Shown: positions 7,367 to 59,710, counted from the first letter of the stretch. The stretch is DNA of 64,000 bases from Thermodesulfobacteriota bacterium (GCA_034722915.1 JAYEOK010000168.1:6016-70015), one strand, 5' to 3'. Notes: generated from the sequence alone by a model not told the origin. Made by a program: numbers and translations.

Positions 7367-7472
7367 CCCGGTTCAACCGGAAACAATTCAGTTCACTGGA
7401 TAAGTGCCTTATCAGAATATGTTCAAAAAAAACAGGTAAGCGTAGACTCCGAGAAAATATTCTGTAAGGCAC
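7367..7472 (-). mobile_element. TTA-type mini-MITE stack (34-bp tail unit plus GTGCCTT-TIR body carrying a 17-bp micro-insert)
   Basis: TAA flanks at 7364-66 and 7473-75; reverse complement of 9000..9086 and 26145..26233. Confidence 0.8.
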
Positions 7473-7618
7473 TAACGCTCACCAGTGGGTGTTATTACCT
7501 TCACCAGATTCTTTTTAAGAATACACGAAAAAAATTTATAAGATACTCAATATCGAATAAGAAATTGTAAAATTTATGATTTGCGCGCCCAACATATGAA
7601 GCTTTTTGTTTGACCATC

Positions 7619-7664
7619 AAAAAAAAATCGCAGTTCCCACCAAAAGGTGGAAACTGCGATTTTA
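7619..7664 (-). terminator. Intrinsic terminator downstream of the YeeE gene
   Basis: AAAATCGCAGTT-CCACC-AAAA-GGTGG-AAACTGCGATTTT; the A-run reads as a U-tract on the minus strand. Confidence 0.8.
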
Positions 7665-7709
7665 TCATAATTCTCTACCCAAAAACAAAGAAATTGACAG
7701 CCCCTGAAA

Positions 7710-8969
7710 TCACATGGGTACAATCAATTTATTTGTATCTTCATTCCAGGTTACAATCAGATACCAGACCATCATGATAAAAGCAATCAAGAGAAGGGTT
7801 GGGCCATATCCCATGACATCAGGGAGATAAACATACGATCCGAGCATACCCTCTTTTTCCAGGTGGATCTCATCCGGGCCATAATTCTGGAACCATTTGG
7901 TCATCAGTGAGTTGGAAAGAGCAAAGAAAGGTACAACCATGATCAGTTTTATCTGGCCTTCGCCTACACGCCACAAAGTACCGGAACCACAACCACCGGC
8001 AAGCATGGCACCAAGACCAAAAATAAAACCACCAACCACACCACCCCAACCAAAAGTGCCACGCACATAGTTGATAGGATGGAGAACAGGATCGCCACCA
8101 TGGGCAATAGGTACACTGTATTTTAATACTGCACCACCGATGGCAAGCAGCAGAATGGACAGGGCAACAGATTTTGCAAGAGTACAGTCACCGGTCATAT
8201 GAGGCTCACGAAAACCCTGAACCATACACCAGCGTCCACGCTGCATGGTGTAACCAAGTGCTGCGGCAATCATAAGAATTCCAGAGAGCGATGCGATATA
8301 GTCGCTGTCTTCATTTCCTGCATAGACGTAAGCTCCCCCGATAAGAACAACAAGGGCACCTATTGCGAGAAGATTTTGAACTCCATTGGAAATATTAATA
8401 GTTCCGGAACCGCCGTCACCCCATGAAATGTATTCCATCTCCATGTACAGCAATTTCAAACCAAGAAGAACACCGATAACAAGTCCAAACCACATGGTAA
8501 AACCGTTTGCAGCAAGGTTTCCAATGGCGTTATACATTCCACCGACATTACAGCCACCGGCAAAGGTAGAACCAACACCCATTAAAATACCTGCAAGTAC
8601 AGCTTTGACCATTTCGCGGTGCGGGGGAATCCGAAAAGCAAAATCTTTTCCAAGACAGGCGGAAATAAAAGCACCTGCAACAAAGCCAATACCAATTACA
8701 GAACCTGAACTGGTAAAAATACCTTTAGGTGCCTCATCATAAAGGCCTAAAAGTCCGTTTTCAGCTCCTATAACGGTATTCAGTCCGTAAATAACCCAGT
8801 CACCCCAGTTTCTGATAGCACCAACCGCCCCCCAGGGACGCCACCAGGCCATAATCAGCAGAGAGAGAAAAGCAACAATGGCACCGACCGCTGTTGGATT
8901 CCACTCCGACTGACAACACGTTTTGTAAAGTGATTTCACCTTACTTTTCATCACACTTTCTTCACTCAT
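7710..8969 (-). CDS. YeeE/YedE-family sulfur-compound (thiosulfate-type) transporter
   Basis: Multi-TM; conserved Cys motifs GGCNVG, QRGRWC, LAGGCGSG. Confidence 0.9.
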   Translation of the reverse strand: MSEESVMKSKVKSLYKTCCQSEWNPTAVGAIVAFLSLLIMAWWRPWGAVGAIRNWGDWVIYGLNTVIGAENGLLGLYDEAPKGIFTSSGSVIGIGFVAGAFISACLGKDFAFRIPPHREMVKAVLAGILMGVGSTFAGGCNVGGMYNAIGNLAANGFTMWFGLVIGVLLGLKLLYMEMEYISWGDGGSGTINISNGVQNLLAIGALVVLIGGAYVYAGNEDSDYIASLSGILMIAAALGYTMQRGRWCMVQGFREPHMTGDCTLAKSVALSILLLAIGGAVLKYSVPIAHGGDPVLHPINYVRGTFGWGGVVGGFIFGLGAMLAGGCGSGTLWRVGEGQIKLIMVVPFFALSNSLMTKWFQNYGPDEIHLEKEGMLGSYVYLPDVMGYGPTLLLIAFIMMVWYLIVTWNEDTNKLIVPM

Positions 8970-8999
8970 ACCTCTCCTCCTTCCGTCAGATTATAATTA

Positions 9000-9183
9000 G
9001 TGCCTTACAGAATATTTTCTTTTTTTTTGAACATATTCTGATAAGGCACTTATCCAGTGAACTGAATGGTTTCCGGTTGAACCGGGTTAGTGCCTTACAG
9101 AATATTTTCTTGTTTTTTTCGCAGGAAATTTTCTGATAAGGCACTTATCCAGTGAACTTAACATTATTTTCGGTTAAACCGGG
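9000..9183 (+). mobile_element. Tandem pair of TTA-type mini-MITE stacks (body plus 34-bp tail, twice)
   Basis: TTA-GTGCCTTACAGAATATTTTC...TAAGGCAC-TTA-TCCAGTGAAC...AACCGGG-TTA repeated at 9000..9086 and 9090..9183. Confidence 0.85.
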
Positions 9184-9357
9184 TTCGTAACGGTGTTACT
9201 TATCCAAGTAAGAGTTTTCTTTACCCTTGCCCACAGCTTTTGTCAAGCATCTAAGGCACAAGAAGCGTTTTTTTTACACAAAAAAACAGTAACATTGAGC
9301 TATAAAAACAAGCAGTTAAGCACCAACGAAACACTTGAATAGCCATTCATTTTGCCC

Positions 9358-9386
9358 TTGACATAATCTCCCGCCTAAAGTATACG
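9358..9386 (+). promoter_or_regulatory. Candidate sigma70 promoter of the tusA-dsrE operon
   Basis: TTGACA-N17-TATACG about 115 bp upstream of tusA. Confidence 0.45.
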
Positions 9387-9501
9387 TCTGACTGTTATCG
9401 TATCAGTGTACTGTTGCTGTATACTGAGTGAAGCTTTTTCAGACAGAAAAACAATTACGTTTATCAGTCTACCGAAACAAAATTTCCAGGAGGAACATTA
9501 A

Positions 9502-9759
9502 ATGAGTGACATCAAAGTTGCTGAAGACGGACTTGCTGTAGCTGCTACACTTGACGCAAAAGGCCTGAGCTGCCCCATGCCTCTTCTTCGTACTAAAAAA
9601 GAAATTGGCAAAATCGCATCTGGTGAAATCCTCCAGATAGATGGTACCGATCCCGGTTCCCGTAATGATATCCCAGGCTGGTGTGCCCGCGCTGGACACG
9701 AGTATCTTGGAGAGAAAGAGGAATCCGGTTATATCAGCTTTTTCGTAAAAAAAGGTTGA
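9502..9759 (+). CDS. tusA: TusA/SirA-family sulfur carrier protein
   Basis: LDAKGLSCPMPLL (CPxP), GTDPGSRNDIPGWC; RBS AGGAGG. Confidence 0.92.
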   Translation: MSDIKVAEDGLAVAATLDAKGLSCPMPLLRTKKEIGKIASGEILQIDGTDPGSRNDIPGWCARAGHEYLGEKEESGYISFFVKKG

Positions 9760-9810
9760 TTAATTAGCAATTTCCAATTTAGTTTTTTTTTACACGGAGG
9801 ATAAAGCAAA

Positions 9811-10143
9811 ATGTCTGCTGATCCAAATAAACTCGCTGTTTTTGTAACCTCACCGCAGCATATGCGACACGTAATTGGTGTTGCTGAAGCTGCCAAGAAA
9901 GCCGGCAAACAACCCATGGTTTTCTTTACCTATAAATCAATCCATTTAACCAAAGATCCCCGTTTTGCAGCTCTTGCAGATCTTTGCGGAGAGGAAAATA
10001 TCGCCATTTGTGCTGACAGTTATACCTGCGAAGGTTATGACTCTGCTGCTGATATCCCTGCCGGTTTGAATGGCAACCAGATGCGAACTCAGGCATTCCA
10101 CGGCGCTCTGCTTGACGAGTGTGGAAAGTACATCGTATTATAA
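9811..10143 (+). CDS. DsrE-like sulfur relay protein
   Basis: 110 aa; LAVFVT...VFFT...ICADS DsrE/TusD-like pattern with a conserved Cys; RBS GGAGG; follows tusA. Confidence 0.7.
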   Translation: MSADPNKLAVFVTSPQHMRHVIGVAEAAKKAGKQPMVFFTYKSIHLTKDPRFAALADLCGEENIAICADSYTCEGYDSAADIPAGLNGNQMRTQAFHGALLDECGKYIVL

Positions 10144-10155
10144 GGAGCTTATGAA

Positions 10156-10515
10156 ATGGAATCTTTAAAAGTATATATTCTGATAGCGAACCGTATGTAT
10201 AATGACGGTGTACGCTCCGCACTGGGTCTTGCTGTAGAAAATCATTACGGCTACCCGGTTATCTTTAACGGCGAATTTCCTCCTTTCTCTACCTACATGA
10301 AAGAGAATATTTCCTGGATCATGGATATGGAAGGCCAGGTATACAGTTGTGGTGCCGCCATTCCTGAAGAAACATATGATGCCGAGCTTGAAGAGAATCT
10401 GATCAAAGAGATCGATCTCAAAGAACTTGGTGAGGCCATGCGTGAGGCTGATTACATTATTCCCTTTGGCCTTCCGAAACAGACTAATGAGCCACCACCA
10501 GCTTGTGCTGAATAA
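10156..10515 (+). CDS. DsrF/DsrE-fold hypothetical protein
   Basis: DGVRSALGLAV resembles the DsrF/TusC helix; RBS AGGAG; in operon. Confidence 0.55.
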   Translation: MESLKVYILIANRMYNDGVRSALGLAVENHYGYPVIFNGEFPPFSTYMKENISWIMDMEGQVYSCGAAIPEETYDAELEENLIKEIDLKELGEAMREADYIIPFGLPKQTNEPPPACAE

Positions 10516-10526
10516 GGAGAGATACA

Positions 10527-10700: not shown

Positions 10701-10725
10701 TCAAAGCTTTTTTTTCATAAAAGCT

Positions 10726-10788: not shown

Positions 10789-12369
10789 CTATCCCAACCG
10801 CACAGACTCGCCTAATTTCGGAACAAATGCGTTGTAACCTATTTGCCGAAGATGCTCTGCAAAAGAGAGTGACTGCTCCTCCTCGCCATGCACCACTGCA
10901 ATTTTCCTGATATTTAAATTTGATTCCTGCAAAAAACGGGTCATCTCATTCTTATCACCATGGGCACTGAATCCACCAAGCATAACAACATGTGCCTTAA
11001 GCTGGTAGTCGGAATTATAGAACCTGATGGTTGGAACCTCTCCTTTTCGCCCTGACTCCGCATATTTCTGACCAAGATCCAGAAGTCTTCTCCCCAGGGT
11101 ATTTCCTGCCATATACCCCACAATGAGCACTGTGTTTCTTTCATCCTGTATTTTATGTCTGAGATGATGGAGAATACGGCCACCCTCACACATACCTGAA
11201 CCTGCAATCACTATGTGAGGTCGCTCATCCCTGTTGAGTGCCATGGACTCCTCCACTGAACCTACAAAATTGATTTCTTTAAAAAGAAAAGGATTTTTTC
11301 CGTTTTCAAGAAATGTTTCATGGGTTTCATCATCATATGTCTCTGGATGTTCACCAAATACTTTTGTCAATTTATTTGCCAGTGGACTGTCCACATAAAT
11401 AGGCATTTTGGGTACTTTTCCTTCCATATACAGCTCATGAAGGTAATAAATAATTTCCTGAGTTCTGCCAAAAGCAAATGCCGGGATCATAATAGAACCG
11501 CCACGCTTTTCTGTCTTGATCAAAATTTTCTGTAGCATTGGTTTTAAGTCCATGACCGGTTTATGCACACGATTTCCATAGGTACTTTCCATAATCAGCA
11601 AATCGATATCTCTGTCTTCTTCAGCAAATTCCAAGGTAGGATCCTGAATAATTGGTTTATCAAAACGACCAATATCACCTGTGAAAAGAATCGAAGACTG
11701 TTTACCTTTTTCACGAACTTTAACATGAATCATGGCGGAACCGAGAATATGACCGGCATCATAAAGGGTACATATCGCATCTTTCCCTACCTCTATGGTG
11801 TGCTTATAAGGATAGCCCTTAAAAAAACCCAGCGAATTTTCTGCATCATTACTTGTATACAGGGGATCAATTTTGTTGAGATTATATTTATTCAGCAGAC
11901 GATTAATTTCACCGGTGTTTAACCTATGCTTCTTAGACTGCAGGAGTTTTTTTATCTTTTTTGCTTCGCTTTTTGAAATTTTTGTATCATTTGAAGAACT
12001 GCTCCTTTTGTACATGAAATTTTTAACGGTTTTATAATTAAGATATTGTGCATCCGATTCCTGAATGCGTGCAGAATCGCTGAGAAGATGTGCAGCAGCT
12101 GCGGCAGTTGCTCTGGTACAGACAATACGACCATTAAATTCATCTTTGGTGAACAAAGGAATACGGCCGCAGTGATCAATGTGAGCATGGGAAAGCAAAA
12201 TAGATGAAATCAATTCAGGAGCAAATGGAATTACCCGGTTACGCTCCGCACTTTCCTTTCTTTTTCCCTGAAACAGGCCACAATCAAATAAAAGCACATC
12301 ATCATCCGTCACAAGCATATGCATGGAGCCTGTAACCTGACGCACAGCACCACAAAAAACAATATACAT
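10789..12369 (-). CDS. MBL-fold beta-CASP metallo-hydrolase (RNA-processing, YSH1/TTHA0252-like)
   Basis: LLSHAHIDHCG, AGHILGSA, MESTYG, FAFGRTQE, SGMCEGGRILHHL, FSAHGD. Confidence 0.9.
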   Translation of the reverse strand: MYIVFCGAVRQVTGSMHMLVTDDDVLLFDCGLFQGKRKESAERNRVIPFAPELISSILLSHAHIDHCGRIPLFTKDEFNGRIVCTRATAAAAAHLLSDSARIQESDAQYLNYKTVKNFMYKRSSSSNDTKISKSEAKKIKKLLQSKKHRLNTGEINRLLNKYNLNKIDPLYTSNDAENSLGFFKGYPYKHTIEVGKDAICTLYDAGHILGSAMIHVKVREKGKQSSILFTGDIGRFDKPIIQDPTLEFAEEDRDIDLLIMESTYGNRVHKPVMDLKPMLQKILIKTEKRGGSIMIPAFAFGRTQEIIYYLHELYMEGKVPKMPIYVDSPLANKLTKVFGEHPETYDDETHETFLENGKNPFLFKEINFVGSVEESMALNRDERPHIVIAGSGMCEGGRILHHLRHKIQDERNTVLIVGYMAGNTLGRRLLDLGQKYAESGRKGEVPTIRFYNSDYQLKAHVVMLGGFSAHGDKNEMTRFLQESNLNIRKIAVVHGEEEQSLSFAEHLRQIGYNAFVPKLGESVRLG

Positions 12370-12394
12370 AATAAAATCCTCCAACAGTTGTTTA

Positions 12395-12555
12395 GTGCCT
12401 TACTCGTTAATTCCTGTCACTCTTTTCAGTACCCCTTGAGGGGTATAAAAAACAGGTAAGCATAGACTCCGAGAAAATGAAAATTTCGATTAACGTTAGC
12501 AAGTTAGACATACCAACAAGGCACTTATGCCGGCCTCACTTACCGTTTACCGGTG
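12395..12555 (+). mobile_element. TTA-type MITE stack (long body plus 28-bp tail) carrying both micro-inserts
   Basis: TTA flanks 12392-94 and 12556-58; palindromic insert 12420..12445; 17-bp insert 12455..12471. Confidence 0.85.
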
Positions 12556-12578
12556 TTACAGTTATCTGGCTTTTTGTA

Positions 12579-13667
12579 TCAACTACTTTCCATCAACAAA
12601 TCATGAAAAACAGGTCTGAATTCCTTAATCTTCCAATTATCCCGACTGGGATGAACCCGGTTGGTAAGCAATACCGCAATACAATCTTTTTCAGGATCTA
12701 TCCAAAATGATGTTCCGGTAAAACCAAGATGACCAACACTCTTCTTTGAAAAATATTTACCGCTACTTGAATCTTTTTCAGAAACCATATCAAAGCCCAT
12801 GGTCCATGTTGACTGACCTACCCGTGTCAGAATCTTCGATACAAGTTCATTTGAATACGCTTGATGCTTCCCCCTGCCCTGCCATTGATCAAGCAGTTGT
12901 TCGCAAAAACAGCTCACTCCCTGAAGTGTTCCAAACAAGCCGGCATGTCCGGCCACTCCTCCAATGGCCCTGCAATTATCATCATGCACAGTCCCACAAA
13001 GCATTTTTTCGCTCCATAAACACTTTTCAGTACTCACATAGGGCCTGTTTCCTTTTTCAGATAAACCTGGGAAAAAAAGGTCATTTTGAAGTCCTGAAGG
13101 TGTATATATGCAGGAACATGCCAATGCACCAATATCATTCGCCGTTATTTTTTCAATTATGAGACCAAGAAGCATGAAGCCAATATCACTATAACAATGA
13201 ATTCTCCCTGGTTTTGATAACAGTTTTTCTCTAAAAATATTTTTAAAAAGCTGCTCTTTTCTGTTCTGTTCGGGAATTTTAATCAGCTCATTAAAATAAT
13301 CTCTATACGGGGGAAATCCAGAACAATGGGACATAAGCTGTTTTACTGTTATTTCACTTTTATCAGGAGGACAAAATGAAAAAATTTCAATCAGTCTTGT
13401 TTCCGGTGTAATACATTTTCTGTGAAAAAGATTGAGTAAAACAGGGACAGTCGCAAGTGGTTTGGTAAGAGATGCAAGATCAAAAATATGATCTTTGCTG
13501 AGCTGTTTTATTTCAGGGTTTCGTTCAGCATAACCATAATATTTCATCAAACGATAATAATACCCATCTGACCACCTTGAAAATGAAAAAGCAGCTCCTG
13601 AAAAAACATTATTATTTAAAGCTGTTACAAATAAATTTTCTATTTTTTCAACTCTCTTTTCATCCAT
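12579..13667 (-). CDS. Serine hydrolase, beta-lactamase/AmpC family
   Basis: FDLASLTK (SxxK), YSDIGF, VHDDN, GHAGLF, GHLGFTGTSFWIDP. Confidence 0.9.
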   Translation of the reverse strand: MDEKRVEKIENLFVTALNNNVFSGAAFSFSRWSDGYYYRLMKYYGYAERNPEIKQLSKDHIFDLASLTKPLATVPVLLNLFHRKCITPETRLIEIFSFCPPDKSEITVKQLMSHCSGFPPYRDYFNELIKIPEQNRKEQLFKNIFREKLLSKPGRIHCYSDIGFMLLGLIIEKITANDIGALACSCIYTPSGLQNDLFFPGLSEKGNRPYVSTEKCLWSEKMLCGTVHDDNCRAIGGVAGHAGLFGTLQGVSCFCEQLLDQWQGRGKHQAYSNELVSKILTRVGQSTWTMGFDMVSEKDSSSGKYFSKKSVGHLGFTGTSFWIDPEKDCIAVLLTNRVHPSRDNWKIKEFRPVFHDLLMESS

Positions 13668-13679
13668 TCAAATTCCCTT

Positions 13680-14027
13680 ATTCCAATAACTCTCCGTAAA
13701 TGAAAATATCATTTAAAAATCTTGTATTTTTACCCACTTTACACTAATATAATCAAAAATGAAGTTTCTTATTATCGTACTGTTTTTCCATATAAATTTT
13801 TAATTATTTTTTTCATTTTCAACAACTTTTCAACAGCCTTTGTTAAAAGATTATTCATAACTTAGTTGATAAACTGTTTAAAACCGGAAATTAACAAATT
13901 TTCTCTTTTTTTTCCACAACACACTGTTTATAAAAATTTTTATTATTTTAATATGTTACGTTTATATTAAACATACTAACCGCCTTAATAACAATAATAA
14001 AAAGATTATTTAATAAAGAGATATCTC
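13680..14027. promoter_or_regulatory. Putative replication origin oriC
   Basis: Very AT-rich; DnaA-box-like TTTTCCACA 13910-18, TTTTCAACA 13816-24 and 13827-35, TTATTCATA 13851-59, TTTTCCATA 13784-92; CCGCC then TAA TAA CAA TAA TAA (13986-14000) resembling DnaA-trios; directly upstream of dnaN. Confidence 0.6.
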
Positions 14028-15158
14028 ATGACACTGAATTGTACTGTATCACGATCTGACTTAATGGAAGGATTGAATAGCCTGCAGAATATAACAAATA
14101 AACGGGTCACCTTAGCCATCCTTTCCAATGTTCTTATTGAAACTGCAGATGATAGTCTCATTCTCACAGGAACTGATCTTGAAATAGGATTACGGGTAGA
14201 AGTACCTGCTGAAATCCATGATCAGGGTACCTTGACCCTGCCAAGTAAAAAGATTTTCGAAATAGTACGTGAATCAGGATCTGATTTCATAACTGTACAG
14301 GAAACTGAAAACAGCTGGGTAATTATATCTGCAGGCTTAAGTACCTATAATCTTGCTGGTATGGCAAGTGATGAATTTCCTGAGTTTCCTGAATTTGATG
14401 AAGATAATTTTGTTTCTTTTGAGGCTGGTATCTTCGCAGACCTTATTGATAAAGTTATTTTTTCTGTGGCCAATGATGAAGAAAATGCCTATTCACTGAC
14501 AAATGTTCTTTTTGAAACAGAAAAAAGAGATGAAAGATCCTATGTCCGTATGATCTCATCCGATGGTCATCGTCTTTCTATCATGGAAAAGGATGTGGCA
14601 GCTGATATAGATATTCTTGACATACAACCGGGAACATTGATTCCTAAAAAAGGTATTCAGGAACTCAAAAAATTCTGTGATAATTGTGATACTGTTGAAC
14701 TTTCTTTTGAGGAAAAACAACTCGTTGCAAAAAACGATGAATCTATCATGGTTATACGCCTTAAAAAAGGCGATTTTCCACAATACAATGCCATAGTTGA
14801 TGCTGTTCAGCTTGAAAATAAAATACAGATAGAAAAAAATCCTTTCCTTGATTCACTCAAACGAATCAACCTTTTTACTGAAGATATCTTTCACACCATT
14901 CAATTAGAAATTGAAAATGGTAAGATGATTCTCAGTTCGCAGAATGTTGATCTTGGAAATGCAAAAGATGTGCTGGATGTACAGTATGACGGTGAACCTC
15001 TTTTATTAGGTTTTAACTGCCGTTATTTTATTGAAGCTCTCCAGGTTATGGAATGTGATGTGGTTGATGCCTATATAAATTCCAATAACAGTCCGTGCCT
15101 GATGAAATCGGATATAGATGAAGGCTTTTTAAGTATAATAATGCCTATGCAACTCTAA
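14028..15158 (+). CDS. dnaN: DNA polymerase III beta sliding clamp
   Basis: GTDLEIGL, SSDGHRLS, LIPKKG, GDFPQY, GFNCRYF, IIMPMQL. Confidence 0.97.
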   Translation: MTLNCTVSRSDLMEGLNSLQNITNKRVTLAILSNVLIETADDSLILTGTDLEIGLRVEVPAEIHDQGTLTLPSKKIFEIVRESGSDFITVQETENSWVIISAGLSTYNLAGMASDEFPEFPEFDEDNFVSFEAGIFADLIDKVIFSVANDEENAYSLTNVLFETEKRDERSYVRMISSDGHRLSIMEKDVAADIDILDIQPGTLIPKKGIQELKKFCDNCDTVELSFEEKQLVAKNDESIMVIRLKKGDFPQYNAIVDAVQLENKIQIEKNPFLDSLKRINLFTEDIFHTIQLEIENGKMILSSQNVDLGNAKDVLDVQYDGEPLLLGFNCRYFIEALQVMECDVVDAYINSNNSPCLMKSDIDEGFLSIIMPMQL

Positions 15159-15243
15159 AAAATTAGACCGGTGATGAATTGTAAACCGGGACTTCTTTTT
15201 GTACCTATTAAAAATATTATTTATATCTATCCCAACTAGTTAA

Positions 15244-17697
<2,454 letters not shown>

Positions 17698-22410: not shown

Positions 22411-22546
22411 ACGTTTTTGGGGATTAAGGTACTGAAACAAGGAGGAAGGCAGGCGCTTAGGATTTCGCTTGATTCTGGGGAAAAAAAGGGTCTGGTACGG
22501 TAATCCCTGGGAGTCAGATATACGATTTAATAGCTCAATATCATTA

Positions 22547-22662
22547 GTGCCTTACTCGTTAATTCCTGTCATAAAAAACAAGAAAATGGAAAGTTCTATT
22601 AAAGTTAGCAGGTTAAATATACCAACAAGGCACTTATGCCGGCTTACCGTTCATCACCGGTG
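22547..22662 (+). mobile_element. TTA-type MITE stack (long body plus 26-bp tail), no micro-inserts
   Basis: TTA flanks 22544-46 and 22663-65; near-identical to 28870..29012 and 54497..54615. Confidence 0.85.
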
Positions 22663-22716
22663 TTAGATTTTAATCGTAAACTAATGTTTTTTTCATTAGC
22701 TTTGGCAATAATATTT

Positions 22717-23164
22717 GAACTTATCGCCCTGCGGGCGGGTTTTAAAAAGAGAATGTCGAATGTCGAACAGGTAAGCGCAGACTCCGAGGAATATCGAATA
22801 TCGATCGGAATAAAAAACGACGGATCAAGGGCCTTTCCCCTTCTGCGGTTCGACATTCCTTGTTCGATATTCGATATTCGTCTTTTAATGTTTGGTATTC
22901 ATTTTTTAAGCTTCGTAAAAAATGAAAATTCCTATGCTATGAACTTAGTGCCCTTTGGGCGGGTTTTAAAAAGAGAATGTCGAATATCGAACAGGTAAGC
23001 GCAGACTCCGAGGAATATCGAATATCGATCGGAATAAAAGACGAAAAATCAAGGGCCTTTCCCCTTCTTCGGTTCGACATTCCTTGTTCGATATTCGATA
23101 TTCGTCCTTTAATGTTCGGTATTCATTATTTAAGCTTCGTAAAAAATGAAAATTCCTATGCTAT
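22717..23164 (+). repeat. Tandem pair of 224-bp hairpin-forming elements (family C)
   Basis: Units 22717..22940 and 22941..23164 start with GAACTTA; internal TCGAATA/G 7-mers form a long inverted repeat; third copy at 32214..32440. Confidence 0.9.
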
Positions 23165-26122: not shown

Positions 26123-26144
26123 ATTTCCCCTCTCCATTTTTTTA

Positions 26145-26456
26145 GTGCCTTACAGAATATTTTCTTGTTTTTTTTGAACATATTCTGATAAGGCACTTAT
26201 CCAGTGAACTGAATGGTTTCCGGTTGAACCGGGTTAGTACCTTACTCCCTAATTCCTGTCATAAAAAAACAGGTAAGCGTAGACTCCGAGAAAATGGAAA
26301 GTATTTTTAATGTTAGTAAATTGCAAATACCACCAAGGTACTTACACCCCACAAGGGGGTACTAAAGTGAGTCCCGGCTTACCGTTCATCACCGGTATTA
26401 GTACCTTACAGAATATTTTCTCGGAGTCTGCACGTACTGTTCATCACCGGTTTCAG
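26145..26456 (+). mobile_element. Array of three TTA-type MITE stacks
   Basis: 26145..26233 (short body plus 34-bp tail), 26237..26397 (long body, both micro-inserts, tail), 26401..26456 (chimeric remnant), each separated by TTA. Confidence 0.85.
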
Positions 26457-28845: not shown

Positions 28846-28869
28846 GGGTCTGTGCCCCCTTTCAGATTA

Positions 28870-29140
28870 GTGCCTTACTCCTCAAAAGCTGTCACTCTTT
28901 TCAGTACCCCCTTGAGGGGTATAAAAAACAAGAAAATGGAAAGTTATATTAAAGTTAGCAGGTTAAACATACCAACAAGGTACTTATGCCGGCTTACTGT
29001 TCATCACCGGTGTTAGCAAGTTGGATATACCAACAAGGCATTTACACCCCTCAGGTAAGCACCCTAAAGAGACAGGGTATAAACTCCGACTCCGAGGGGG
29101 TACTGAAAAGAGTGCCGGCCTCACTTACCGTTTACCGGTG
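28870..29140 (+). mobile_element. Two stacked TTA-type MITE units with nested micro-inserts
   Basis: 28870..29012 full; 29016..29140 partial body plus palindromic insert that itself contains a 41-bp GGTAAGC...ACTCCG insert (29054..29094). Confidence 0.85.
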
Positions 29141-29176
29141 TTATCTTTTAATCCCCTGTCTCCTTTACTCTAACCA

Positions 29177-31016: not shown

Positions 31017-31104
31017 CCAGGAGGCTGTCCGAAAATGCACTTTTCCTTCAACTCTTCGTTATTTGCAAAATTTTATCCTCGGACAAGCTCCCGGGAGCTT
31101 GTCC
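31017..31104. mobile_element. Internally deleted CTAG-family MITE between dctP and dctQ
   Basis: CCAGGAGGCTGTCCGAAAATG ... CTCGGACAAGCTCCCGG followed by a further GGAGCTTGTCC end. Confidence 0.7.
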
Positions 31105-32136: not shown

Positions 32137-32196
32137 GCATTTCTCCTGTTCTACACGTAGGGGACTGACTTTATTTTTCCTTGCTTGAATGCGCCC

Positions 32197-32474
32197 TAAG
32201 GCACTTATCCAGTGAACTTATCGCCCTGCGGGCGGGTTTTAAAAAGAGAATGTCGAACAGGTAAGCGCAGACTCCGAGGAATATCGAATATCGATCGGAA
32301 TAAAAAACGACGGATCAAGGGCTTTTCCCCTTCTGCGGTTCGACATTCCTCGGAGTCTTCGCTTACCTGTTCGATATTCGTCTTTTAATGTTCGGTATTC
32401 ATTTTTTAAGCTTCGTAAAAAATGAAAATTCCTATGCTATGAACTTAACAGTATTTCCGGTTGAACCGGGTTAG
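32197..32474 (+). mobile_element. Family C element inserted in a 34-bp tail unit
   Basis: TAAGGCAC-TTA-TCCAGT[GAACTTA...GCTAT]GAACTTAACAGTATTTCCGGTTGAACCGGG-TTA; two 17-bp inserts at 32260..32276 and 32351..32367. Confidence 0.8.
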
Positions 32475-32608
32475 AAAAAAATTCAGTCCCCTTGGTTCAT
32501 TGGAAAAATTAAGGTAAGCACCCTGAGAAACCAGGGTATAAACTCCGACTCCGAGTCTCCCGGATTTGCTGCACCTGAATAGTTACAATAATTTTTAAGG
32601 CACTAAAA

Positions 32609-34213: not shown

Positions 34214-34281
34214 TGTGACTGCCCTTGTAGGAAGAAAAGAAAGTTATTATTGAATGCGCCCTTACTATTAAACTAGCCTAA

Positions 34282-34393
34282 CACCGGTGATGAACGGTAA
34301 GCCGGCACTCTTTTCAGTACCCCCTTGAGGGGTATAAGTACCTTATCAGAATATTTTCTTTGAAAAAAAACAAGAAAATATCCTGTAAGGCAC
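34282..34393 (-). mobile_element. TTA-type MITE stack (short body plus palindromic insert plus 26-bp tail)
   Basis: TAA flanks 34279-81 and 34394-96; shows bodies and tails assort independently. Confidence 0.85.
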
Positions 34394-34427
34394 TAAATAG
34401 TTTTCCATTTCCAGAAATTAATTGAGT

Positions 34428-35663: not shown

Positions 35664-35843
35664 GGAACGTACATTAAATAACCTGAACATCTTTCTTGCC
35701 CTTCGGAGTCTCGTGCCTCGCTTACCTGTTCCGCCAGCAATACTTTAAAAACCGTTACATACAGGGAGTATGCAAAGCTTTTTAAAGTGTCGCTGACGAA
35801 AAAATTGCGGCGAAATATGTTCAGGTTATTTAATTCCCGTTCC
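35664..35843. mobile_element. Family E MITE (27-bp TIRs, TAA duplication) with a 23-bp micro-insert
   Basis: GGAACGTACATTAAATAACCTGAACAT ... ATGTTCAGGTTATTTAATTCCCGTTCC; 180 bp = 157-bp copy at 52182 plus 23. Confidence 0.9.
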
Positions 35844-41683: not shown

Positions 41684-41755
41684 GTAGAATGGTCCAGCAA
41701 TGGGGCAATGGCCGAACTATTCGAACTTACGCTGAAACTTTGCATAGAACGCCTC

Positions 41756-41902
41756 CTAGGAGCTTGTCCGAGAATAGGCATTTCTTCTCAAATCGAGGCA
41801 TTTTGAAAAAATAAGCACAGGCATATAGTTGATATTCCGAGCATTATTTTTTCAAAATAACGAAGAGTTGAGGAGAAAGGGCATTCTCGGACAGCCTCCT
41901 AG
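41756..41902. mobile_element. 147-bp MITE with CTAG flanks
   Basis: CTAG-GAGCTTGTCCGAGAAT ... ATTCTCGGACAGCCTC-CTAG; same length as the inverted copy at 63242..63388. Confidence 0.88.
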
Positions 41903-41983
41903 GGAAATGTGTTCAGAGTGGAGAGGACTCATGGGCTATAACTTACTGAATATGAATAATATGTTTGCACGGAACTGATTTCA

Positions 41984-48841: not shown

Positions 48842-48899
48842 ATCAGTACTAATACCGGTGATAAACGGTAACTATTCTACTATACAAGTGAGATAAGAT

Positions 48900-49687: not shown

Positions 49688-49906
49688 ATGTTTTTACCTG
49701 CGTTGGCAAGAGATTTGTATAAGAGTCAGAAAGAGGTTGAAGGTCTTGAGCAGCAGCTGGAGGACGCAGTGTCGTTTCAGGAACAGGAACAGGTGACGGA
49801 ACAGTTGCGTCAGGCCATGGCAGAGTTGAAACAGATTCGTAAGGTACTCGATGGCAGGAAAGAGCAGTCAAGAGCCTCACTGAACAAGCCAAAATATCGT
49901 TTCTAA
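49688..49906 (+). CDS. Small coiled-coil hypothetical protein
   Basis: RBS AGGAG; heptad-rich LARDLYKSQKEVEGLEQQL. Confidence 0.65.
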   Translation: MFLPALARDLYKSQKEVEGLEQQLEDAVSFQEQEQVTEQLRQAMAELKQIRKVLDGRKEQSRASLNKPKYRF

Positions 49907-49940
49907 CCCGGTTCAACCGGAAACAATTCAGTTCACTGGA
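49907..49940 (-). mobile_element. Solo 34-bp TTA-type mini-element
   Basis: TAA-CCCGGTTCAACCGGAAACAATTCAGTTCACTGGA-TAA with no adjoining body. Confidence 0.8.
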
Positions 49941-50103
49941 TAAGATTTGTAACTATTCAGGCACCTGCCGGGAAGAAACAAGATACCTCGAAATGTACCT
50001 GTTCAGCAGTATAATTACCTTATAACCTTAATGTTTCGATCCAATTGATACTGAAATAAAAAATTACTATATCTATCGTCAGGAAAAGTATACACTTTAA
50101 TGG

Positions 50104-52142: not shown

Positions 52143-52623
52143 ATGGCAAGCTCGTAAAAAGGTCAATTTTAAGATGGCTAAGGAACGTACATTAAATAAC
52201 CTGAACATCTTTCTTGCCCTTTGTTCCGCCAGCAATACTTTAAAAACCGTTACATACAGGGAGTATGCAAAGCTTTTTAAAGTGTCGCTGACGAAAAAAT
52301 TGCGGCGAAATATGTTCAGGTTATTTAATTCTCGTTCCTAAGTAAAAAACTCCATATGCGAGGCGTAAATATTCGGCTTGCACCTGAAAACAGCCCAAAC
52401 CACTGAATTGTAAATGTTTGGATAGTGCCTCAGGTTCGTTTAATCCGGCGTGTGAACTATATTGACTCATATGTGAACACGCTGGATTGGACGAAGATGG
52501 GGTGCTAGCCGAATATTTACTGCGAGGCGCGCAAAATTTCTGTCATTTCGGCGTACTAGGGTACGTCGTAATGATAGAAAATTTGCAGCAACGAAGCAGA
52601 TGGAGAGTTTTTACGACGCCATC
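52143..52623. mobile_element. Family D MITE containing nested E and F MITEs
   Basis: D ends ATGGCAAGCTCGTAAAAA / TTTTTACGACGCCATC; E 52182..52338 (TAA dup); F 52365..52520 (TGCGAGGC dup). Confidence 0.9.
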
Positions 52624-54273: not shown

Positions 54274-54665
54274 CTACTTCCTGAACAACTCAGCGTGGGA
54301 TCCTGTTCGTTCCAGATACAAATCATCGGCGGTAATTCGATAAATCAGAAGCCAATCCGATTCAATGTGACAATCTCTGTGGCCTTTCCAGTTGCCGGTC
54401 AATGGATGATCTTTGTACTTTTGATCCAAGACCTGACCAGTGACCAGCAACTTGATGAGATCAGTCAATTTTTCAGGATTTTTATTCTGGCGTTTAGTGC
54501 CTTACTCCTCAAAAGCTGTCATAAAAAAACAAGAAAATGGAAAGTTCCATTAAAGTTAGCAGGTTAAACATACCAACAAGGCACTTATACCGGCCTCACT
54601 TACCGTTTACCGGTGTTAGTGCGTTTGTAATCTTTTTTGAATTGCGTAGTATAATGAATGTTCAA
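54274..54665 (-). pseudogene. yafQ: YafQ-type mRNA interferase toxin interrupted by a MITE stack
   Basis: Removing the 122-bp insertion restores 90 codons: (TTG)NIHYTTQFKKDYKRTKRQNKNPEKLTDLIKLL...DHPLTGNWKGHRDCHIESDWLLIY...TGSHAELF. Confidence 0.88.
54497..54615 (+). mobile_element. TTA-type MITE stack inserted in yafQ
   Basis: TTA at 54494-96 and 54616-18; body plus 28-bp tail. Confidence 0.9.
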
Positions 54666-54922
54666 CCGTTCAGCTCCTGAAACAGCTGCTCAACAGAATC
54701 CACGGTATGCATTTTTTTTCCATTTTTTGATTCTGTCAATGTTTTTGCTGTAAGATCATTGGGAATCCTAAGCTCAAAAGGAATGCCCTGATGCAGTGTT
54801 ATCTGGGAAAGATACATGGAAATGGCTTCAGACATGGTGATGTTGAGCTTATTTAAAACTTCCTGTGCATTCTTTTTTACGACCGGATCGACACGAGTTT
54901 GGATTGTTGCTGTTTTGATCAT
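54662..54922 (-). CDS. dinJ: RelB/DinJ-family antitoxin
   Basis: TIQTRVDPVVK, SEAISMYL, GIPFELRIPNDLTAKTL; stop overlaps the toxin start. Confidence 0.9.
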   Translation of the reverse strand: MIKTATIQTRVDPVVKKNAQEVLNKLNITMSEAISMYLSQITLHQGIPFELRIPNDLTAKTLTESKNGKKMHTVDSVEQLFQELNG

Positions 54923-55792: not shown

Positions 55793-58700
55793 ATGGACAG
55801 TAAAAAGTTTACCGAAAGACATGGCTGGCAGCGTCTTGAATGGGAAGGGACCATTCTCTATGTTCAACCTGATATTCCTGACTGGATTGTTGTTTCAGAG
55901 AAAGCCGATCAATTACTCAGCTCAGAAGAGAGTACTTTTTCCGTTTTTTATGACAGAAATCTACTGGAAAGTGCTTTTGAGATGGAACCGCTGCAACCCT
56001 ATAGCGGGAGGGAACATGCACTGAGTTTAAAGCAGCTCAAGGAATGCTGGTTTCATGTGACTGATACCTGTAATCTCAGTTGTCGGCACTGCCTTTTTTC
56101 CGCATCTCCTGCAAAAACACGAAGCCTTGCCCCGGAACTTCTGCAGAACACGGTTCAGCAGGCGCTTGCTCTGGGATGCCGCCTTTTTTCCTTTACCGGT
56201 GGTGAACCGTTTCTTTATCCTGACTTCCTGCCATTTTTACGTACGCTTCTTGAAAAAAACAGGGATGTGCATGCAGCAGTGTTGACAAACGGCATGCTGT
56301 TGCATCAATTTCTGGATGAACTTGGTGATATGGACAGGCTTCATCTCCAGGTGAGTCTGGATGGTCTGGAGAAAAGTCACGACAGGCAGCGCGGAAGCGG
56401 CAGTTACCGGAAGCTCATGAAAAATCTTGTGGCCATGAAGGAGGCAGGAATTCCTGTCACACTTTCGGTGGCCATCAGTCGTGAGAATATTGATGATCTC
56501 CTGCAGGTAGTAGATATTGCAGCAGAGGTGGGGGCAGCCTCCATCCATCTTCTCTACCATTTTGTAAGAGGGAAGGGGAGTCGGGAGCAATTTATTACAC
56601 CGGATATCATTTTTCCACAACTTCTTGCAGCCTGGCGACGGGCTGTGGAGCTGGGTCTTAGCATCGATAATGTCGAGACCATGCGCAGCCAGATTTTTTC
56701 AACTCCCGGTACTCGTTACGATCTTTCCAATACGGGATGGGAGTCCGTGGCCATAGGGCCGGATGGTATTATTTATCCATCTCCTGCTCTGGTTGGCCTT
56801 GCGCAAACCGCCTGTGGTCATGTGGATGATGGACTGGAAAAAGTGTGGAAGACAAGCCCGCTTCTGAATAATCTGCGCAAGGCCAGCCTGATCAATTCTC
56901 CGGCCTATCAGGCAAACCCTCTGAAGTTTCTGGTGGGCGGCGGTGATACTGATCACAGCTTTATGTCCGGAGCCGATTGGGTGGGGCACGACCCTTATGT
57001 GGAGATTTATAACCGCATCGCTTTGCAGTTGATTTCTGATCAGGCCGGTCAATATACCGGTGAAGGGAAAAATGGGATTCTCCTGCGTATGGGGGATGTC
57101 CGACACGATTGCCTGGAGGATGAAGGGGAAAGCACTGAGGTGGCCCTGACGCACTGTAACTGTCTTATTTCCCTTGCCTCTGATGTTGGCCACAGCTCGG
57201 TACGGGAATTTTATGGTCAGGCAGCACTCACTGCAAATGAAGATATCGTCAATCCCCTGGCACCAGCCCAGGACGCAGCTGATTTTATTCCCGGAAAAAC
57301 AAAAAAGCACTCCTATGGCTGCGGCAGCCCTGTGACGGATGGCGCTCCCGGGGAAGGTGAGACGCTTGTTGATCTTGGTTCCGGTTCCGGAATCGAATGT
57401 TTCATGGCTTCTGCTTTGGTTGGCAGGAGTGGCCGGGTGTACGGCATAGACATGACCGATGAAATGCTCCGGCTGGCTGCGGAATCACAGGAAGAGGTTG
57501 CGGCGCGTCTGGGATATCAAAATGTGGAATTTCGAAAGGGCTTCCTGGAACAGATCCCATTGGATGATGGAACAGCAGATGTGGTGATTTCCAATTGTGT
57601 AATTAATCTTAGTCCTGATAAACGCATGACCTACCAGGAAATTTTTCGTATCCTGAAGCCGGGAGGCCGCCTGGTAGTATCTGATATCGTGACAGATACA
57701 GCAATTCCGGCAACAATCAGAAATAATGTCCGCTATCGTGGCGAGTGTCTTGGCGGGGCCATGCAGCAGGAAGAACTGGTGGCCATGATGGAGGCAGCCG
57801 GGTTTTCCTCCATCCGTTTTATAAAGCGTTTTCCGTATCGTCAGGTTGAGAATATGGATTTTTTCTCCCTTACCTATGAGGCAATTCGACCTGTTGCCTT
57901 AGAGGAGGCAATGGTGGATGTGATCTACAGAGGCCCTTATGGCGCGGTTTATACCGAGTCCGGGATTCTCCTTGTGAAAGGAAGACGCAGCTCCATTCCA
58001 TCAGGAGAGGTGGCTTTTCTTGACGATTCTCTCTTTGTTCTTGATGATAAAGGCGTTGTCACAAATCTGGAGATGGAGAATTCATGCTGTTCTCCACAAA
58101 CCGGGATAAGTGGAGTCGAGAGTAGCTGCTGTGGTCCGGAAAGCACAGATTGTTGCGGCAACCAGGAGAGCGGGTCTGCAACAGAACGAAAAAGTGAAGG
58201 CTGCATGGTTTGCGGTACTGAATTGCACTATTTTACCGATGCAAAAGAAATGTCCTGCAGCTATTGCGGGCGCACGTTTGCAAGCAATGGTTGCTGTGAA
58301 CAGGGTCACTTTATCTGCGACAGCTGCCATCGGGAAAACGGGATCGAAGTCATCAAAACCATCTGTACCGGAACTGCAGAAAAGGATCTCATCACTCTGC
58401 TCGAACTCATCCGCAGCCATCCTGCCATTCCCATGCATGGACCGGAACATCACGCCATGATCCCGGGGATTATCCTTGCCTGTTATCGGAACAGCGGAGG
58501 TGATATCACCAAAGAGGCCATTCTCACCGGCATCAACCGGGGTGCCGAGATCCCCGGCGGAGCCTGTGGCTTCTGGGGAGCATGCGGGGCAGCCATTGGG
58601 GCTGGCATTGCGGTTTCAACAATCCTTGCCGCCACACCTCTTACTCCGGCACCAAGACAGACGGCACAGGCTTTCAGCGCAAAGATACTTTCTGTTATTG

Positions 58701-58924
58701 CAGAGTACCGTGGTGGTCGCTGCTGCCAGCGGGAGACCTGGCTGGCTCTTTCTGAAACAGCCAGATTATCTGAAGAAATGCTTTCTGTTCCCATGGAGGC
58801 AAAAGGGATAATTCGCTGTGAGCAGTATTTGAGAAATAAGGAGTGTATTCGAAAGCAATGCCCTCTTTGGGACAATCGGGTAAAGAATCTCGAACCTGAA
58901 CTGCAGTTTCTTTCCATTCCCTGA
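55793..58924 (+). CDS. Radical SAM - ArsM-like methyltransferase - DUF5714-like Cys-rich fusion protein
   Basis: CNLSCRHC and FTGGEP (radical SAM); YGCGSP, VDLGSGSG, DMTDEM, SNCVINLSPDK, GECLGGA (ArsM); CC-rich linker; CMVC/CSYC/CDSC, MHGPEHH, CGFWGACGAA, GRCCQR (DUF5714-like). Confidence 0.85.
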   Translation: MDSKKFTERHGWQRLEWEGTILYVQPDIPDWIVVSEKADQLLSSEESTFSVFYDRNLLESAFEMEPLQPYSGREHALSLKQLKECWFHVTDTCNLSCRHCLFSASPAKTRSLAPELLQNTVQQALALGCRLFSFTGGEPFLYPDFLPFLRTLLEKNRDVHAAVLTNGMLLHQFLDELGDMDRLHLQVSLDGLEKSHDRQRGSGSYRKLMKNLVAMKEAGIPVTLSVAISRENIDDLLQVVDIAAEVGAASIHLLYHFVRGKGSREQFITPDIIFPQLLAAWRRAVELGLSIDNVETMRSQIFSTPGTRYDLSNTGWESVAIGPDGIIYPSPALVGLAQTACGHVDDGLEKVWKTSPLLNNLRKASLINSPAYQANPLKFLVGGGDTDHSFMSGADWVGHDPYVEIYNRIALQLISDQAGQYTGEGKNGILLRMGDVRHDCLEDEGESTEVALTHCNCLISLASDVGHSSVREFYGQAALTANEDIVNPLAPAQDAADFIPGKTKKHSYGCGSPVTDGAPGEGETLVDLGSGSGIECFMASALVGRSGRVYGIDMTDEMLRLAAESQEEVAARLGYQNVEFRKGFLEQIPLDDGTADVVISNCVINLSPDKRMTYQEIFRILKPGGRLVVSDIVTDTAIPATIRNNVRYRGECLGGAMQQEELVAMMEAAGFSSIRFIKRFPYRQVENMDFFSLTYEAIRPVALEEAMVDVIYRGPYGAVYTESGILLVKGRRSSIPSGEVAFLDDSLFVLDDKGVVTNLEMENSCCSPQTGISGVESSCCGPESTDCCGNQESGSATERKSEGCMVCGTELHYFTDAKEMSCSYCGRTFASNGCCEQGHFICDSCHRENGIEVIKTICTGTAEKDLITLLELIRSHPAIPMHGPEHHAMIPGIILACYRNSGGDITKEAILTGINRGAEIPGGACGFWGACGAAIGAGIAVSTILAATPLTPAPRQTAQAFSAKILSVIAEYRGGRCCQRETWLALSETARLSEEMLSVPMEAKGIIRCEQYLRNKECIRKQCPLWDNRVKNLEPELQFLSIP

Positions 58925-58972
58925 AATATCTTATTTATCCGAATATTTGTTTCTAAGCCGCCGTGGCAGTTT

Positions 58973-59005
58973 GTTTGTAATCCTTTTTGAATTGCGTAGT
59001 GTAAT
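58973..59005 (-). pseudogene. Fragment of a second yafQ 5' end
   Basis: 33 bp with 2 mismatches to 54623..54655; reads YTTQFKKDYK on the minus strand. Confidence 0.65.
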
Positions 59006-59309
59006 TCAAAAGCATAGGAATTTCCATTTTTGACATGATCGTCAGGATAAAAAATCTTGTAAATCTTGTTTATCCTGTCGAAAAAGTCCGCCAGCAGGGC
59101 GTTAAGTTGATAGCCCGTCGTCACCAGCACCATCTTTGTTTTCGTGTAATCAGCGGGCACGTGCAGAAGTAGGGAATAGGTCGCTTCTGAAAAAGATGTC
59201 CCGGAATTTATTTTCCGAGAAATGAATAAAGAGATCGACAAATTGTAATAAAATTGTTCATATACTCGTATGGGGCTGTTTGATAAATTTTTTTCAGGAG
59301 GAAAGTCAA

Positions 59310-59429
59310 ATGAGTGGACATGGACATGGGCATGAAAAACCGGAAGAAGATCATACCGTATGCATAAAAGTTGGTATCTTTTTTGTTTTTGTGATTATAG
59401 GATTTTTTGTGATCGGGATGATTAACTAA
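59310..59429 (+). CDS. 39-aa His-rich single-pass membrane protein (not in ORF track)
   Basis: AGGAGG RBS 8 nt upstream; MSGHGHGHEKPEEDHTVCIKVGIFFVFVIIGFFVIGMIN. Confidence 0.7.
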   Translation: MSGHGHGHEKPEEDHTVCIKVGIFFVFVIIGFFVIGMIN

Positions 59430-59483
59430 CACTGGTGATGAACGGTAAGCCATTGTAAAGAGTGCCAGGCAAGTGTTGTTTGT

Positions 59484-59517
59484 AAACCGTCAGAAGCGTG
59501 GCTTCTGACGGTTTTTT
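59484..59517 (+). terminator. Intrinsic terminator after the small His-rich gene
   Basis: AAACCGTCAGAAGC-GTG-GCTTCTGACGGTTT-TTT. Confidence 0.85.
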
Positions 59518-59525
59518 CTGTTTTA

Positions 59526-59710
59526 GTGCCTTACTCGTTAATTCCTGTCATAAAAAACAAGAAAATGAAAAGTTCGTTTAACGTTAGCAAGTTGAACATA
59601 CCAACAAGGCACTTATACCCCTCAAGGGGGTACTGCAAAGAGTGCCGGCCTCACTTACCGTTTACCGGTATTAGACTCCAGTGAACTTGATTGTTTCCAG
59701 TTGAACCGGG
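59526..59710 (+). mobile_element. TTA-type MITE stack with palindromic insert, followed by a degenerate 34-bp tail
   Basis: TTA 59523-25 and 59671-73; insert 59616..59642. Confidence 0.85.

Follow-up and report, generated by a model that had tools for sequence, protein, structure and literature searches.

Composite hairpin repeats inserted at TTA in fixed orientation in a Desulfocapsa genome

What are the short repeats bounded by TTA that recur along a 64,000-nucleotide stretch of Desulfocapsa DNA, and which of the described families of small mobile repeats do they resemble? The stretch (hereafter, the window) comes from a draft genome of 3.94 Mb (332 contigs, 44% G+C), in which it occupies positions 6016-70015 of contig C168; the assembly being a draft, all genome copy numbers given below are lower bounds. 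GyrB is 90–95% identical to that of Desulfocapsa metagenome-assembled genomes (MAGs), which places the source as a Desulfocapsa sp. within the Desulfocapsaceae; a spirochaete, at first suggested by MCP and TatT genes, was rejected as the source on this ground. TTA-bounded units lie at ~12 loci in the window. The element in question is a composite: a hairpin body and a shorter hairpin tail, separated by one TTA and flanked by others. In the following, a slash within a sequence marks the point of insertion.

The best-known comparison is with the repetitive extragenic palindromes (REPs) of Escherichia coli, Pseudomonas and Stenotrophomonas, with the bacterial interspersed mosaic elements (BIMEs) and REP doublets forming hairpins (REPINs) built from them, and with their RAYT proteins. 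Like these, the composites comprise hundreds of short, intergenic, palindromic units arranged in mosaics, keep their hairpin pairing on one strand, show lineage-specific copy numbers, and are non-autonomous and presumably moved in trans. Unlike them, they have no GTAG head but start with TTA/GTRCC or TTA/TRCCGG, and they have a clear TTA/G target with TTA on both sides. BIMEs and REPINs alternate or invert their units, whereas 87 of 87 abutting pairs here stand head-to-tail. Moreover, the RayT of this genome has REPs of its own that differ from the composites, and Y1 transposase genes are uncorrelated with element copy number.

A second comparison is with Tourist-like MITEs (miniature transposable elements with inverted repeats) of the IS5 (IS1031) and PIF-Harbinger type, which generate 3-bp TWA duplications. 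Common to both are the single TTA of the empty site and the two of the filled one, the inverted-repeat arms of the body, size, an AT-rich interior and nesting; one further repeat of this genome, the H element, behaves exactly as this class. The composites differ in that they virtually lack TAA in their own orientation (one copy with tail D2), that the mobile unit extends past the right arm of the body and has unlike ends, that a G after the site is required on one side only, and that a matching transposase was not found in the genome.

Insertion sequences (IS) of the IS200/IS605 group recognise short target motifs: TTAC for IS608, TTTAA for IS605 and TTGAT for ISDra2. Their palindrome-associated transposable elements (PATEs) share with the composites an oriented insertion 3′ of a short T-rich motif (here TTA/), unlike left and right ends, and hairpins in place of terminal inverted repeats (TIRs); the micro-inserts E and F described below are similar in using fixed sites (TTA/TG and CA/AG, respectively) without duplication. 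Yet the composite repeats its target motif at the 3′ end, readable either as a duplication or as part of the right end, its hairpins directly abut the putative cleavage sites, a TnpA or TnpB partner with these ends was not found in the genome, and a lagging-strand bias is absent.

BOX elements of Streptococcus pneumoniae (boxA-boxB(n)-boxC) are likewise small, intergenic, multi-copy composites with variable modules, which measure 45–60 bp and are interchangeable (PMC3184786). They differ in modules and sequences, and are not known to have a TTA/G target, oriented insertion or head-to-tail stacking of whole elements. Integron arrays, finally, collect their cassettes, each with an attC site at its end, at a single attI beside an integrase, whereas the present elements are scattered over contigs in ~355 chains of parsed composites (~466 unstacked starts), and no link to an integrase was found.

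Body and tail as the moving unit

The modules fall into two bodies, a short one of ~52 bp whose palindrome is nearly perfect (A) and a long one of ~87 bp (C), and three tails of 34 bp (B), 26 bp (D1) and 28 bp (D2). To these add a 27-bp module (TACCCCTCAAGGGGGTACTGAAAAGAG; E), the inserts F1 (17 bp) and F2 (41 bp) of the form GGTAAGC..ACTCCG, a module of ~204–224 bp (G), and the H MITE of 157 or 180 bp. A preliminary description, made from the sequence of the window alone, had named the TTA-bounded units, and all of them were found where it had placed them; the long bodies it reported are present as well, but it had overlooked the micro-inserts nested in them, E (27 bp, at TTA/TG) and F (17 or 41 bp, at CA/AG). 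Allowing up to one mismatch, the window contains TTAGTGCCTTA 21 times, where chance would give 0.72 and none of 100 shuffles gave as many; its exact form is present 439 times in the genome. We counted 629 element starts genome-wide, as well as 1238 islands of 14-mers with at least 8 copies, which together span 190 kb or 4.8% of the genome. BLAST (cover threshold of at least 80%) returned 77 copies of A, 32 of C, 109 of B, 159 of D1 and 258 of D2, the counts for A and C being low because nested inserts split many bodies.

Which of these parts moves? The flanks of the BLAST-defined copies point to the composite. A body end (..AC TTA) precedes B in 103 of 109 copies, and a body end or E precedes D1 or D2 in ~393 of 417. 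Conversely, TTAT, with which a tail or E begins, follows A in 72 of 77 and C in 28 of 32 copies, the remaining four carrying TTAC, the TTACACCCC variant of E. Inspection of the exceptions left 1–2 true solo tails among the 109 copies of B, both of them on the window's own contig, and ~10 among the 417 of D, mostly degenerate; bodies without a tail number ~2 of 109. Solo tails thus exist, as the preliminary description had it, but nearly all tails are joined to bodies, and its suggestion that 26–34-bp tails are mobile on their own is not supported by these counts.

Parsing yielded 442 complete elements with length peaks at 87–95 bp for A and a tail, 124 bp for C-D and 151 bp for C-E-D. The body subfamily predicts the tail: A with GTGCC arms is followed by B, A with GTACC arms by D1, and C mostly by D2; minority combinations such as C-B or A-D2 exist but are rare. 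Within length classes, copies are close to identical. The 95-bp A-B class has 41 members with a mean pairwise identity of 97.5%, 13 of which equal the consensus, as do 13 of the 21 members of the 87-bp class, while a 104-bp class carrying a nested F-like insert is 99.4% identical. Because whole composites recur as identical copies, passengers included, the amplifying unit is the composite, that is, body-TTA-(E)-tail-TTA of ~87–151 bp, rather than the single module. Free assortment of bodies and tails, as first proposed, is not supported by these data.

That the composites are mobile is evident from empty sites in relatives. In the closest relative, whose gyrB neighbourhood is ~90% identical, AATTA/GTAACGG stands where the window has TTA, an A-B-A-B chain ending in TT(C), and then GTAACGG. 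We further queried the joined flanks of 34 other insertion sites against the genus Desulfocapsa, and at least 15 further orthologous loci in other species of the genus lack the element, most of them with exactly one TTA (for example GCTTTA/GATAGC, GATAATTA/GCGTTA, GGTTATTA/GTTTGC, ACAATTA/ACTGAA and TGCTTTTA/GGCATA). In the closest species (G002), several loci carry another element at the same TTA, representing either reused or remodelled sites. A gene disruption in the window agrees with this picture: excising 122 bp (C-D2 plus one TTA; 54497-54618) restores a YafQ-like frame, whose spacing presumably agrees with that of E. coli YafQ. The locus itself (54274-54922) is a dinJ-yafQ pair in which the toxin gene is split by C-D2 and the antitoxin frame upstream is apparently intact.

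The position after the 3′ TTA is G in 94–96% of copies. The TTAC that the preliminary description read at 12556-12559 is indeed there, but constitutes an exception to this rule. Preference for a T at position −1 is mild (50% of insertions versus 38% of free intergenic TTAG sites). Only 7 of 442 composites lie inside long open reading frames (ORFs), though such ORFs make up 76% of the genome. Taken together, these are mobile and recently active elements that enter TTA/G sites, which gain one TTA in the process; that insertion occurs at TTA and leaves TTA on either side had been proposed before and is borne out by the empty sites and by the yafQ frame.

Orientation, stacking, hairpins and distribution

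Insertion is oriented. To the left of C, 31 of 32 copies have TTA; to the right of D2, 243 of 258 have it and one has TAA. Overall, more than 95% of copies show TTA coupled to their orientation, with TAA at most 1–2 times per unit type. The H MITE provides a control from the same genome: 26 of its copies have TTA on both sides and 26 have TAA, the equal split expected of a DDE transposase that duplicates TWA. The orientation of the composites is therefore fixed relative to the asymmetric TTA/G. Their stacking follows the same polarity. Among the parsed composites, every one of the abutting pairs with a shared TTA is head-to-tail, and head-to-head and tail-to-tail pairs number zero each. By size, 282 chains consist of a single composite, 61 of two, 11 of three and one of five.

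Do resident ends attract new copies? As the preliminary description supposed, insertion recreates the target, so that chains form: 163 of 629 starts (26%) abut a preceding tail. TTAG occurs 6346 times in long ORFs, 3222 times in free intergenic DNA and 2006 times in repeats. Since element-borne TTAGs make up a large share of the tolerated sites, the stacking rate needs no special attraction, and, with coding TTAG sites set aside, special targeting of resident ends becomes unnecessary. The chains are explained by regeneration of the target together with selection against insertions in genes.

Both parts of the composite form hairpins. Folded as a single strand, the A body reaches −19.7 kcal/mol (z = −6.9), and body arms covary (GTG..CAC in 296 copies and GTA..TAC in 81, with 30 discordant). 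The outer two pairs of the D tail read TG..TG in 190 copies, which gives two G·T wobbles on the top strand and A·C mismatches on the bottom strand; in the variants TA..TG, TG..TA and TC..GG, top-strand pairing is kept. This one-strand pairing of the tail hints at a single-strand function. The two ends of the composite (left GTRCCTTA.., right ..CCGGTG or ..AACCGGG) are unlike and not inverted copies of each other.

How widespread is the family? Among 41 genomes searched, the D1 core is confined to Desulfocapsa, where 16 of 25 species have it, at 0–153 copies. The body-tail junction motif AAGGYACTTAYRCC has a patchy distribution across the Desulfobulbales: this genome holds 441 copies, others of Desulfocapsa hold 74 and 29, those of a different Desulfocapsaceae genus 53 and 28, and those of two further families 158, 46, 39 and 32, while a reversed-pattern control gave 0–2 copies per strand in every genome. 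Among close relatives, copy number ranges from 0 to 441. The element of the other families reads TTA-GTRCCTTA..AAGGYAC-TTA-TACCCCTCNGGGGGGTACTGAAAATAG-TCCAGGACC..CTGGG-TTA/G, with bodies down to ~30 bp. The layout body-TTA-E-tail-TTA/G is conserved across families of the order while sequences drift.

Searches with the elements gave no match in Rfam and none in plasmid and phage records, and our literature search returned no paper that gives the unit sequences or describes Desulfocapsa repeats. Chunjie of Geobacter was considered as the same family and set aside, having 9-bp duplications and being unrelated. Apparently, the 90–150-bp non-coding mobile repeats of Desulfocapsa and other Desulfobulbales form a family undescribed so far.

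Mechanism and competing explanations

How might the composites move? We think it probable, with some reserve, that they are non-autonomous mobile elements of one family, the composite being the moving unit and mobilised in trans. A unit consists of the hairpin body (GTRCCTT...AAGGYAC), TTA, an optional 27-bp hairpin E, the tail hairpin (TCCAG..CCGGG or TRCCGG..CCGGTR) and a closing TTA. It enters at TTA/G in constant orientation relative to the asymmetric site, TTA then standing on both sides, and recreates TTAG at both ends in DNA that tolerates insertions. New copies land on the recreated TTAG at about the chance rate, yielding strictly head-to-tail chains. New body-tail combinations most likely arise secondarily; they may result from deletion or recombination of stacked neighbours at the shared AAGGCAC-TTA junction, and the nested micro-inserts E (TTA/TG) and F (CA/AG) may offer a further route.

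As to the enzyme, we favour, at low confidence, a strand- or orientation-specific one acting in trans. Tentatively, it might be a strand-specific enzyme of the single-strand HUH kind that cuts 3′ of TTA beside a hairpin at both ends; a site-specific recombinase with a TTAG core seems unlikely, and an IS5- or PIF-type DDE transposase rather more so. The HUH-like enzyme or core-site recombinase is preferred to the IS5/PIF DDE type because orientation is fixed, the ends are unlike and pairing is one-stranded. The IS5 (IS1031 group) and PIF-Harbinger link drawn in the preliminary description is accordingly doubtful: TTA is bound to orientation, the composite lacks TIRs, and a matching DDE transposase was not found in the genome. 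Confidence in the HUH-like or recombinase mechanism stays low because no linked or co-occurring enzyme and no strand bias were seen.

Several observations weigh against this explanation, some of them against its single-strand form in particular, and we collect them here. The 3-bp TTA on both sides has exactly the appearance of a DDE target duplication, and the tail hairpins are thermodynamically weak. No cognate enzyme linked to the elements or co-occurring with them was found. The genome has 12 Y1_Tnp matches, 8 of them intact genes, none of which is flanked on both sides by TTA units, so that we rejected them as partners; a C-D2 composite on contig C228 lies ~170 bp from a Y1 gene, which is within chance. 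Across genomes, Y1 genes are absent from the element-rich G010 and G132, present as a fragment in G283, and abundant in element-free genomes. The RayT homologue (C299:20504-20866) is flanked by REPs of the GTAG type (GTAGGTTGGGTT..AACCCAAC) and not by TTA units. TnpB is absent here; in the genus, it was found in G021 alone. IS91-like Y2 genes, each preceded by an integrase gene, are present in four of the five element-richest genomes; they also occur in three element-free genomes and are missing from seven element-bearing ones, and this pairing was rejected, its copy-number trend being weak and its contigs devoid of element ends. Insertion of the IS200/IS605 type, which uses the lagging-strand template, would predict a replication-strand bias, and none is apparent (183 versus 153 by the sign of local GC skew, p = 0.11). 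Finally, in a draft of 332 contigs an autonomous copy could hide in collapsed repeats.

Other candidates fared no better. No recurrent long element with GTGCCTT-type ends was found genome-wide in the 332-contig draft, and clustering of multi-copy ORFs revealed no high-copy IS. DDE_Tnp_4 has no match in the genome, and its six DDE_Tnp_1 genes were discarded as partners, their ends being unrelated to the units. A full-length IS with the unit ends, which the preliminary description had proposed to seek, is not among the recurrent sequences of this draft, and the window encodes no transposase gene, as had been noted from the start.

Some loci stand apart from the composites. C299:20100-21300 is a separate, classical REP/RAYT system with REPs of the form GTAGGTTGGGTTGAG..AACCCAAC. 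The IS91-like Y2 genes of this genome lie on C203, C194, C99 and C305, short contigs that resemble collapsed repeats and whose ends are unrelated to the units; on C203 and C194, a tyrosine-recombinase gene precedes the Y2 gene. In the window, the GC skew changes sign at 12000-16000, beside dnaN-like, gyrB and gyrA genes, and the window therefore probably contains the origin of replication; elements on either side of this putative origin have no consistent orientation.

Against this background, four other readings deserve attention. The first is that the composites represent a new class of bacterial non-autonomous elements, moved by a strand- or orientation-specific enzyme that is neither a RAYT/IS200-type Y1 nor an IS5/PIF-type DDE transposase and that would need only a hairpin beside TTA/ at each end. 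We regard this as possible, though we would not expect it.

A second reading assigns insertion to a tyrosine or serine site-specific recombinase, with integron- or IS110-like logic, that would join an element circle (junction ..CCGGTG-TTAG-TGCC..) to TTAG-like targets. It predicts oriented insertion, a core on both sides and cassette-like arrays, and in line with it orientation is fixed, a short core stands on both sides and unlike units are arrayed strictly head-to-tail. Targets such as TTA/GTA.. and TTA/GTG.. resemble the left junction of the element, and the same TTA was hit by independent insertions in two species. At 6 of the ~15 empty sites, moreover, the relative has a base other than G after TTA where this genome has G or GT, which overlap conversion to the element's GT would fit; given a local divergence of 15–25%, however, the result is not significant, and we do not retain such conversion. 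Target specificity (TTA/G plus a weak T) is very low, unlike that of known recombinase core sites and of the targets of bridge RNAs, the dispersed sites in use exceed 400, no recombinase is linked to the elements, and the integrase plus IS91-like pairs lack element ends. We consider this reading improbable.

Third, every body and every tail might be an independent mini-MITE with short TIRs, assorting freely and moved by a TTA-duplicating IS5/PIF transposase. Each unit type does end in sequences resembling inverted repeats (GTGCCTT with AAGGCAC; YCCRG with CYGGR) and is flanked by TTA on both sides, there are a few solo tails (49907 in the window; ~10 D copies) and minority combinations such as C-B and A-D2, and the H MITE indicates that a TWA-duplicating transposase was once active in the lineage. 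Solo tails, however, make up at most 2–5% of tails, and ~2 of 109 bodies lack one. Every unit has a set orientation towards TTA and its partner, in contrast to H; the identity of full composites means that the composite was copied; its right end is not an inverted copy of the left; and DDE_Tnp_4 is unmatched while the six DDE_Tnp_1 genes have unrelated ends. Independent mini-MITEs are, in our judgement, quite unlikely.

Fourth, host-functional modules (terminators, RNA stabilisers, protein-binding sites or small RNAs) that selection maintains and that spread mainly through recombination, instead of selfish mobile DNA, would account for the nearly exclusive intergenic location (7 of 442 in long ORFs), for hairpins conserved across families of the order and for degenerate D-like hairpins right after genes at 7307, 15162 and 48849, but precise presence or absence between species at single TTA sites, the copy that interrupts a yafQ-like gene, copy numbers from 0 to 441 among close relatives, bursts of identical copies, the lack of an Rfam match and the lack of any fixed position or orientation to genes noticed in the window (no systematic measurement was made) render it highly improbable.

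Loci in the window, accompanying repeats and significance

The composites and related repeats of the window are arranged as follows.

7364..7475, minus strand: A-B composite (TTA; A 7404-7472; TTA; B 7367-7400; TTA/G), with a 17-bp F1 nested in A (7435-7451)
8997..9186, plus strand: two A-B composites head-to-tail (A 9000-9049, B 9053-9086, A 9090-9144, B′ 9148-9183); the final TTA is now TTC by mutation
12392..12558, plus strand: C-D2 composite (C 12395-12524, D2 12528-12555), 3′ flank TTA/C, a rare non-G; nested in C are a reverse E (12420-12445) and F1 (12455-12471)
22544..22665, plus strand: clean C-D1 composite (C 22547-22633, TTA, D1 22637-22662, TTA/G)
26142..26456, plus strand: three unlike units with shared TTAs; first A-B (26142-26236), next C carrying F1, with E and D1 behind it (26234-26399), and last an A-like unit that is truncated and whose end is degenerate and D1-like
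28867..29143, plus strand: C (with nested reverse E) plus D1, followed at the TTAG of the tail by the 3′ half of another C from its internal GTTAG, then E and D2; the 41-bp F2 splits this E (29054-29094)
32185..32606, strand not assigned: mosaic island with an A-like body end, the start of B, a G element nested in B (~224 bp, with two F1 inserts), the remainder of B and an additional body end (32596-32606)
34278..34396, minus strand: A-E-D1 composite (A 34341-34393, TTA, E 34308-34334, D1 34282-34307, TTA/G)
49904..49943, minus strand: solo tail B (49907-49940); TAA..TAA on the plus strand, equal to TTA..TTA in the orientation of B
52182..52338, plus strand: H MITE of 157 bp with a 27-bp TIR (GGAACGTACATTAAATAACCTGAAC); second copy at 35664-35843
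54494..54618, plus strand: C-D2 composite in the minus-strand yafQ-like toxin gene
59523..59672, plus strand (locus 59523..59710): C-E-D2 composite, with a degenerate B-like tail 4 nt past it (59677-59710, plus strand)
Micro-insert F: 7435-7451, 12455-12471, 22770-22786, 26272-26288, 29054-29094, 32260-32276, 32351-32367
Module E: 12420-12445, 28895-28921, 34308-34334, 59616-59642

Micro-insert F comes as a 17-bp form (GGTAAGCGTAGACTCCG) or as a 41-bp form with an ACCCT..AGGGT hairpin, in both cases between CA and AG and without duplication. The genome holds 143 + 58 copies, and because nearly all of them lie in two contexts, AAACA/AGAAA or GAACA/AGGAA, most probably hitch-hike with their host repeats. 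Module E is a hairpin (ACCCCTCAAGGGGGT) that sits at TTA/TG without a terminal TTA; 151 of its 226 copies lie between a body and a D tail and ~50 lie reversed at one site in C; in elements from other Desulfobulbales families, E is a constant component.

The larger repeats nest as well. H MITEs occur within A bodies and within F2, 24 of their ends lie near contig edges, and the assembly contains no autonomous copy of H. The G element (~224 bp) forms a tandem pair at 22716-23164 and has a copy nested in the B tail at 32206-32444; each carries F inserts, and spurious ORFs run through G in several contigs. An unrelated repeat family (TCTGGGAGCCTGTCCGGGAATGCCC...) is present at 431-518, 31017-31091, 41753-41903 and 63241-63389, and also occurs at another place in the genome, nested in a C body. 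Solo D-like hairpins of degenerate sequence (CCGGTGATGAA..CCGG) are found directly past gene ends at 7307-7345, 15162-15200 and 48849-48874, two of them with T-runs; they may represent old copies that have been co-opted as terminators, or an ancestral form of the tail.

What does the family mean for its hosts? Small repeats make up ~5% of this genome, break genes such as yafQ and lie a few bases from start codons. They also cause many contig breaks in Desulfobulbales MAGs, and knowing their grammar aids annotation and assembly. The H MITE serves as a built-in classical control within the same genome. The composites themselves unite strict orientation and unlike hairpin ends with 3-bp flanks like those of a MITE, a combination that neither DDE MITEs nor REP/RAYT systems predict. 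If the composites do form a new class, E (27 bp) and F (17–41 bp) would be among the smallest mobile DNAs known. Were the enzyme to be found, it could set a new minimum for the substrate of oriented DNA insertion.

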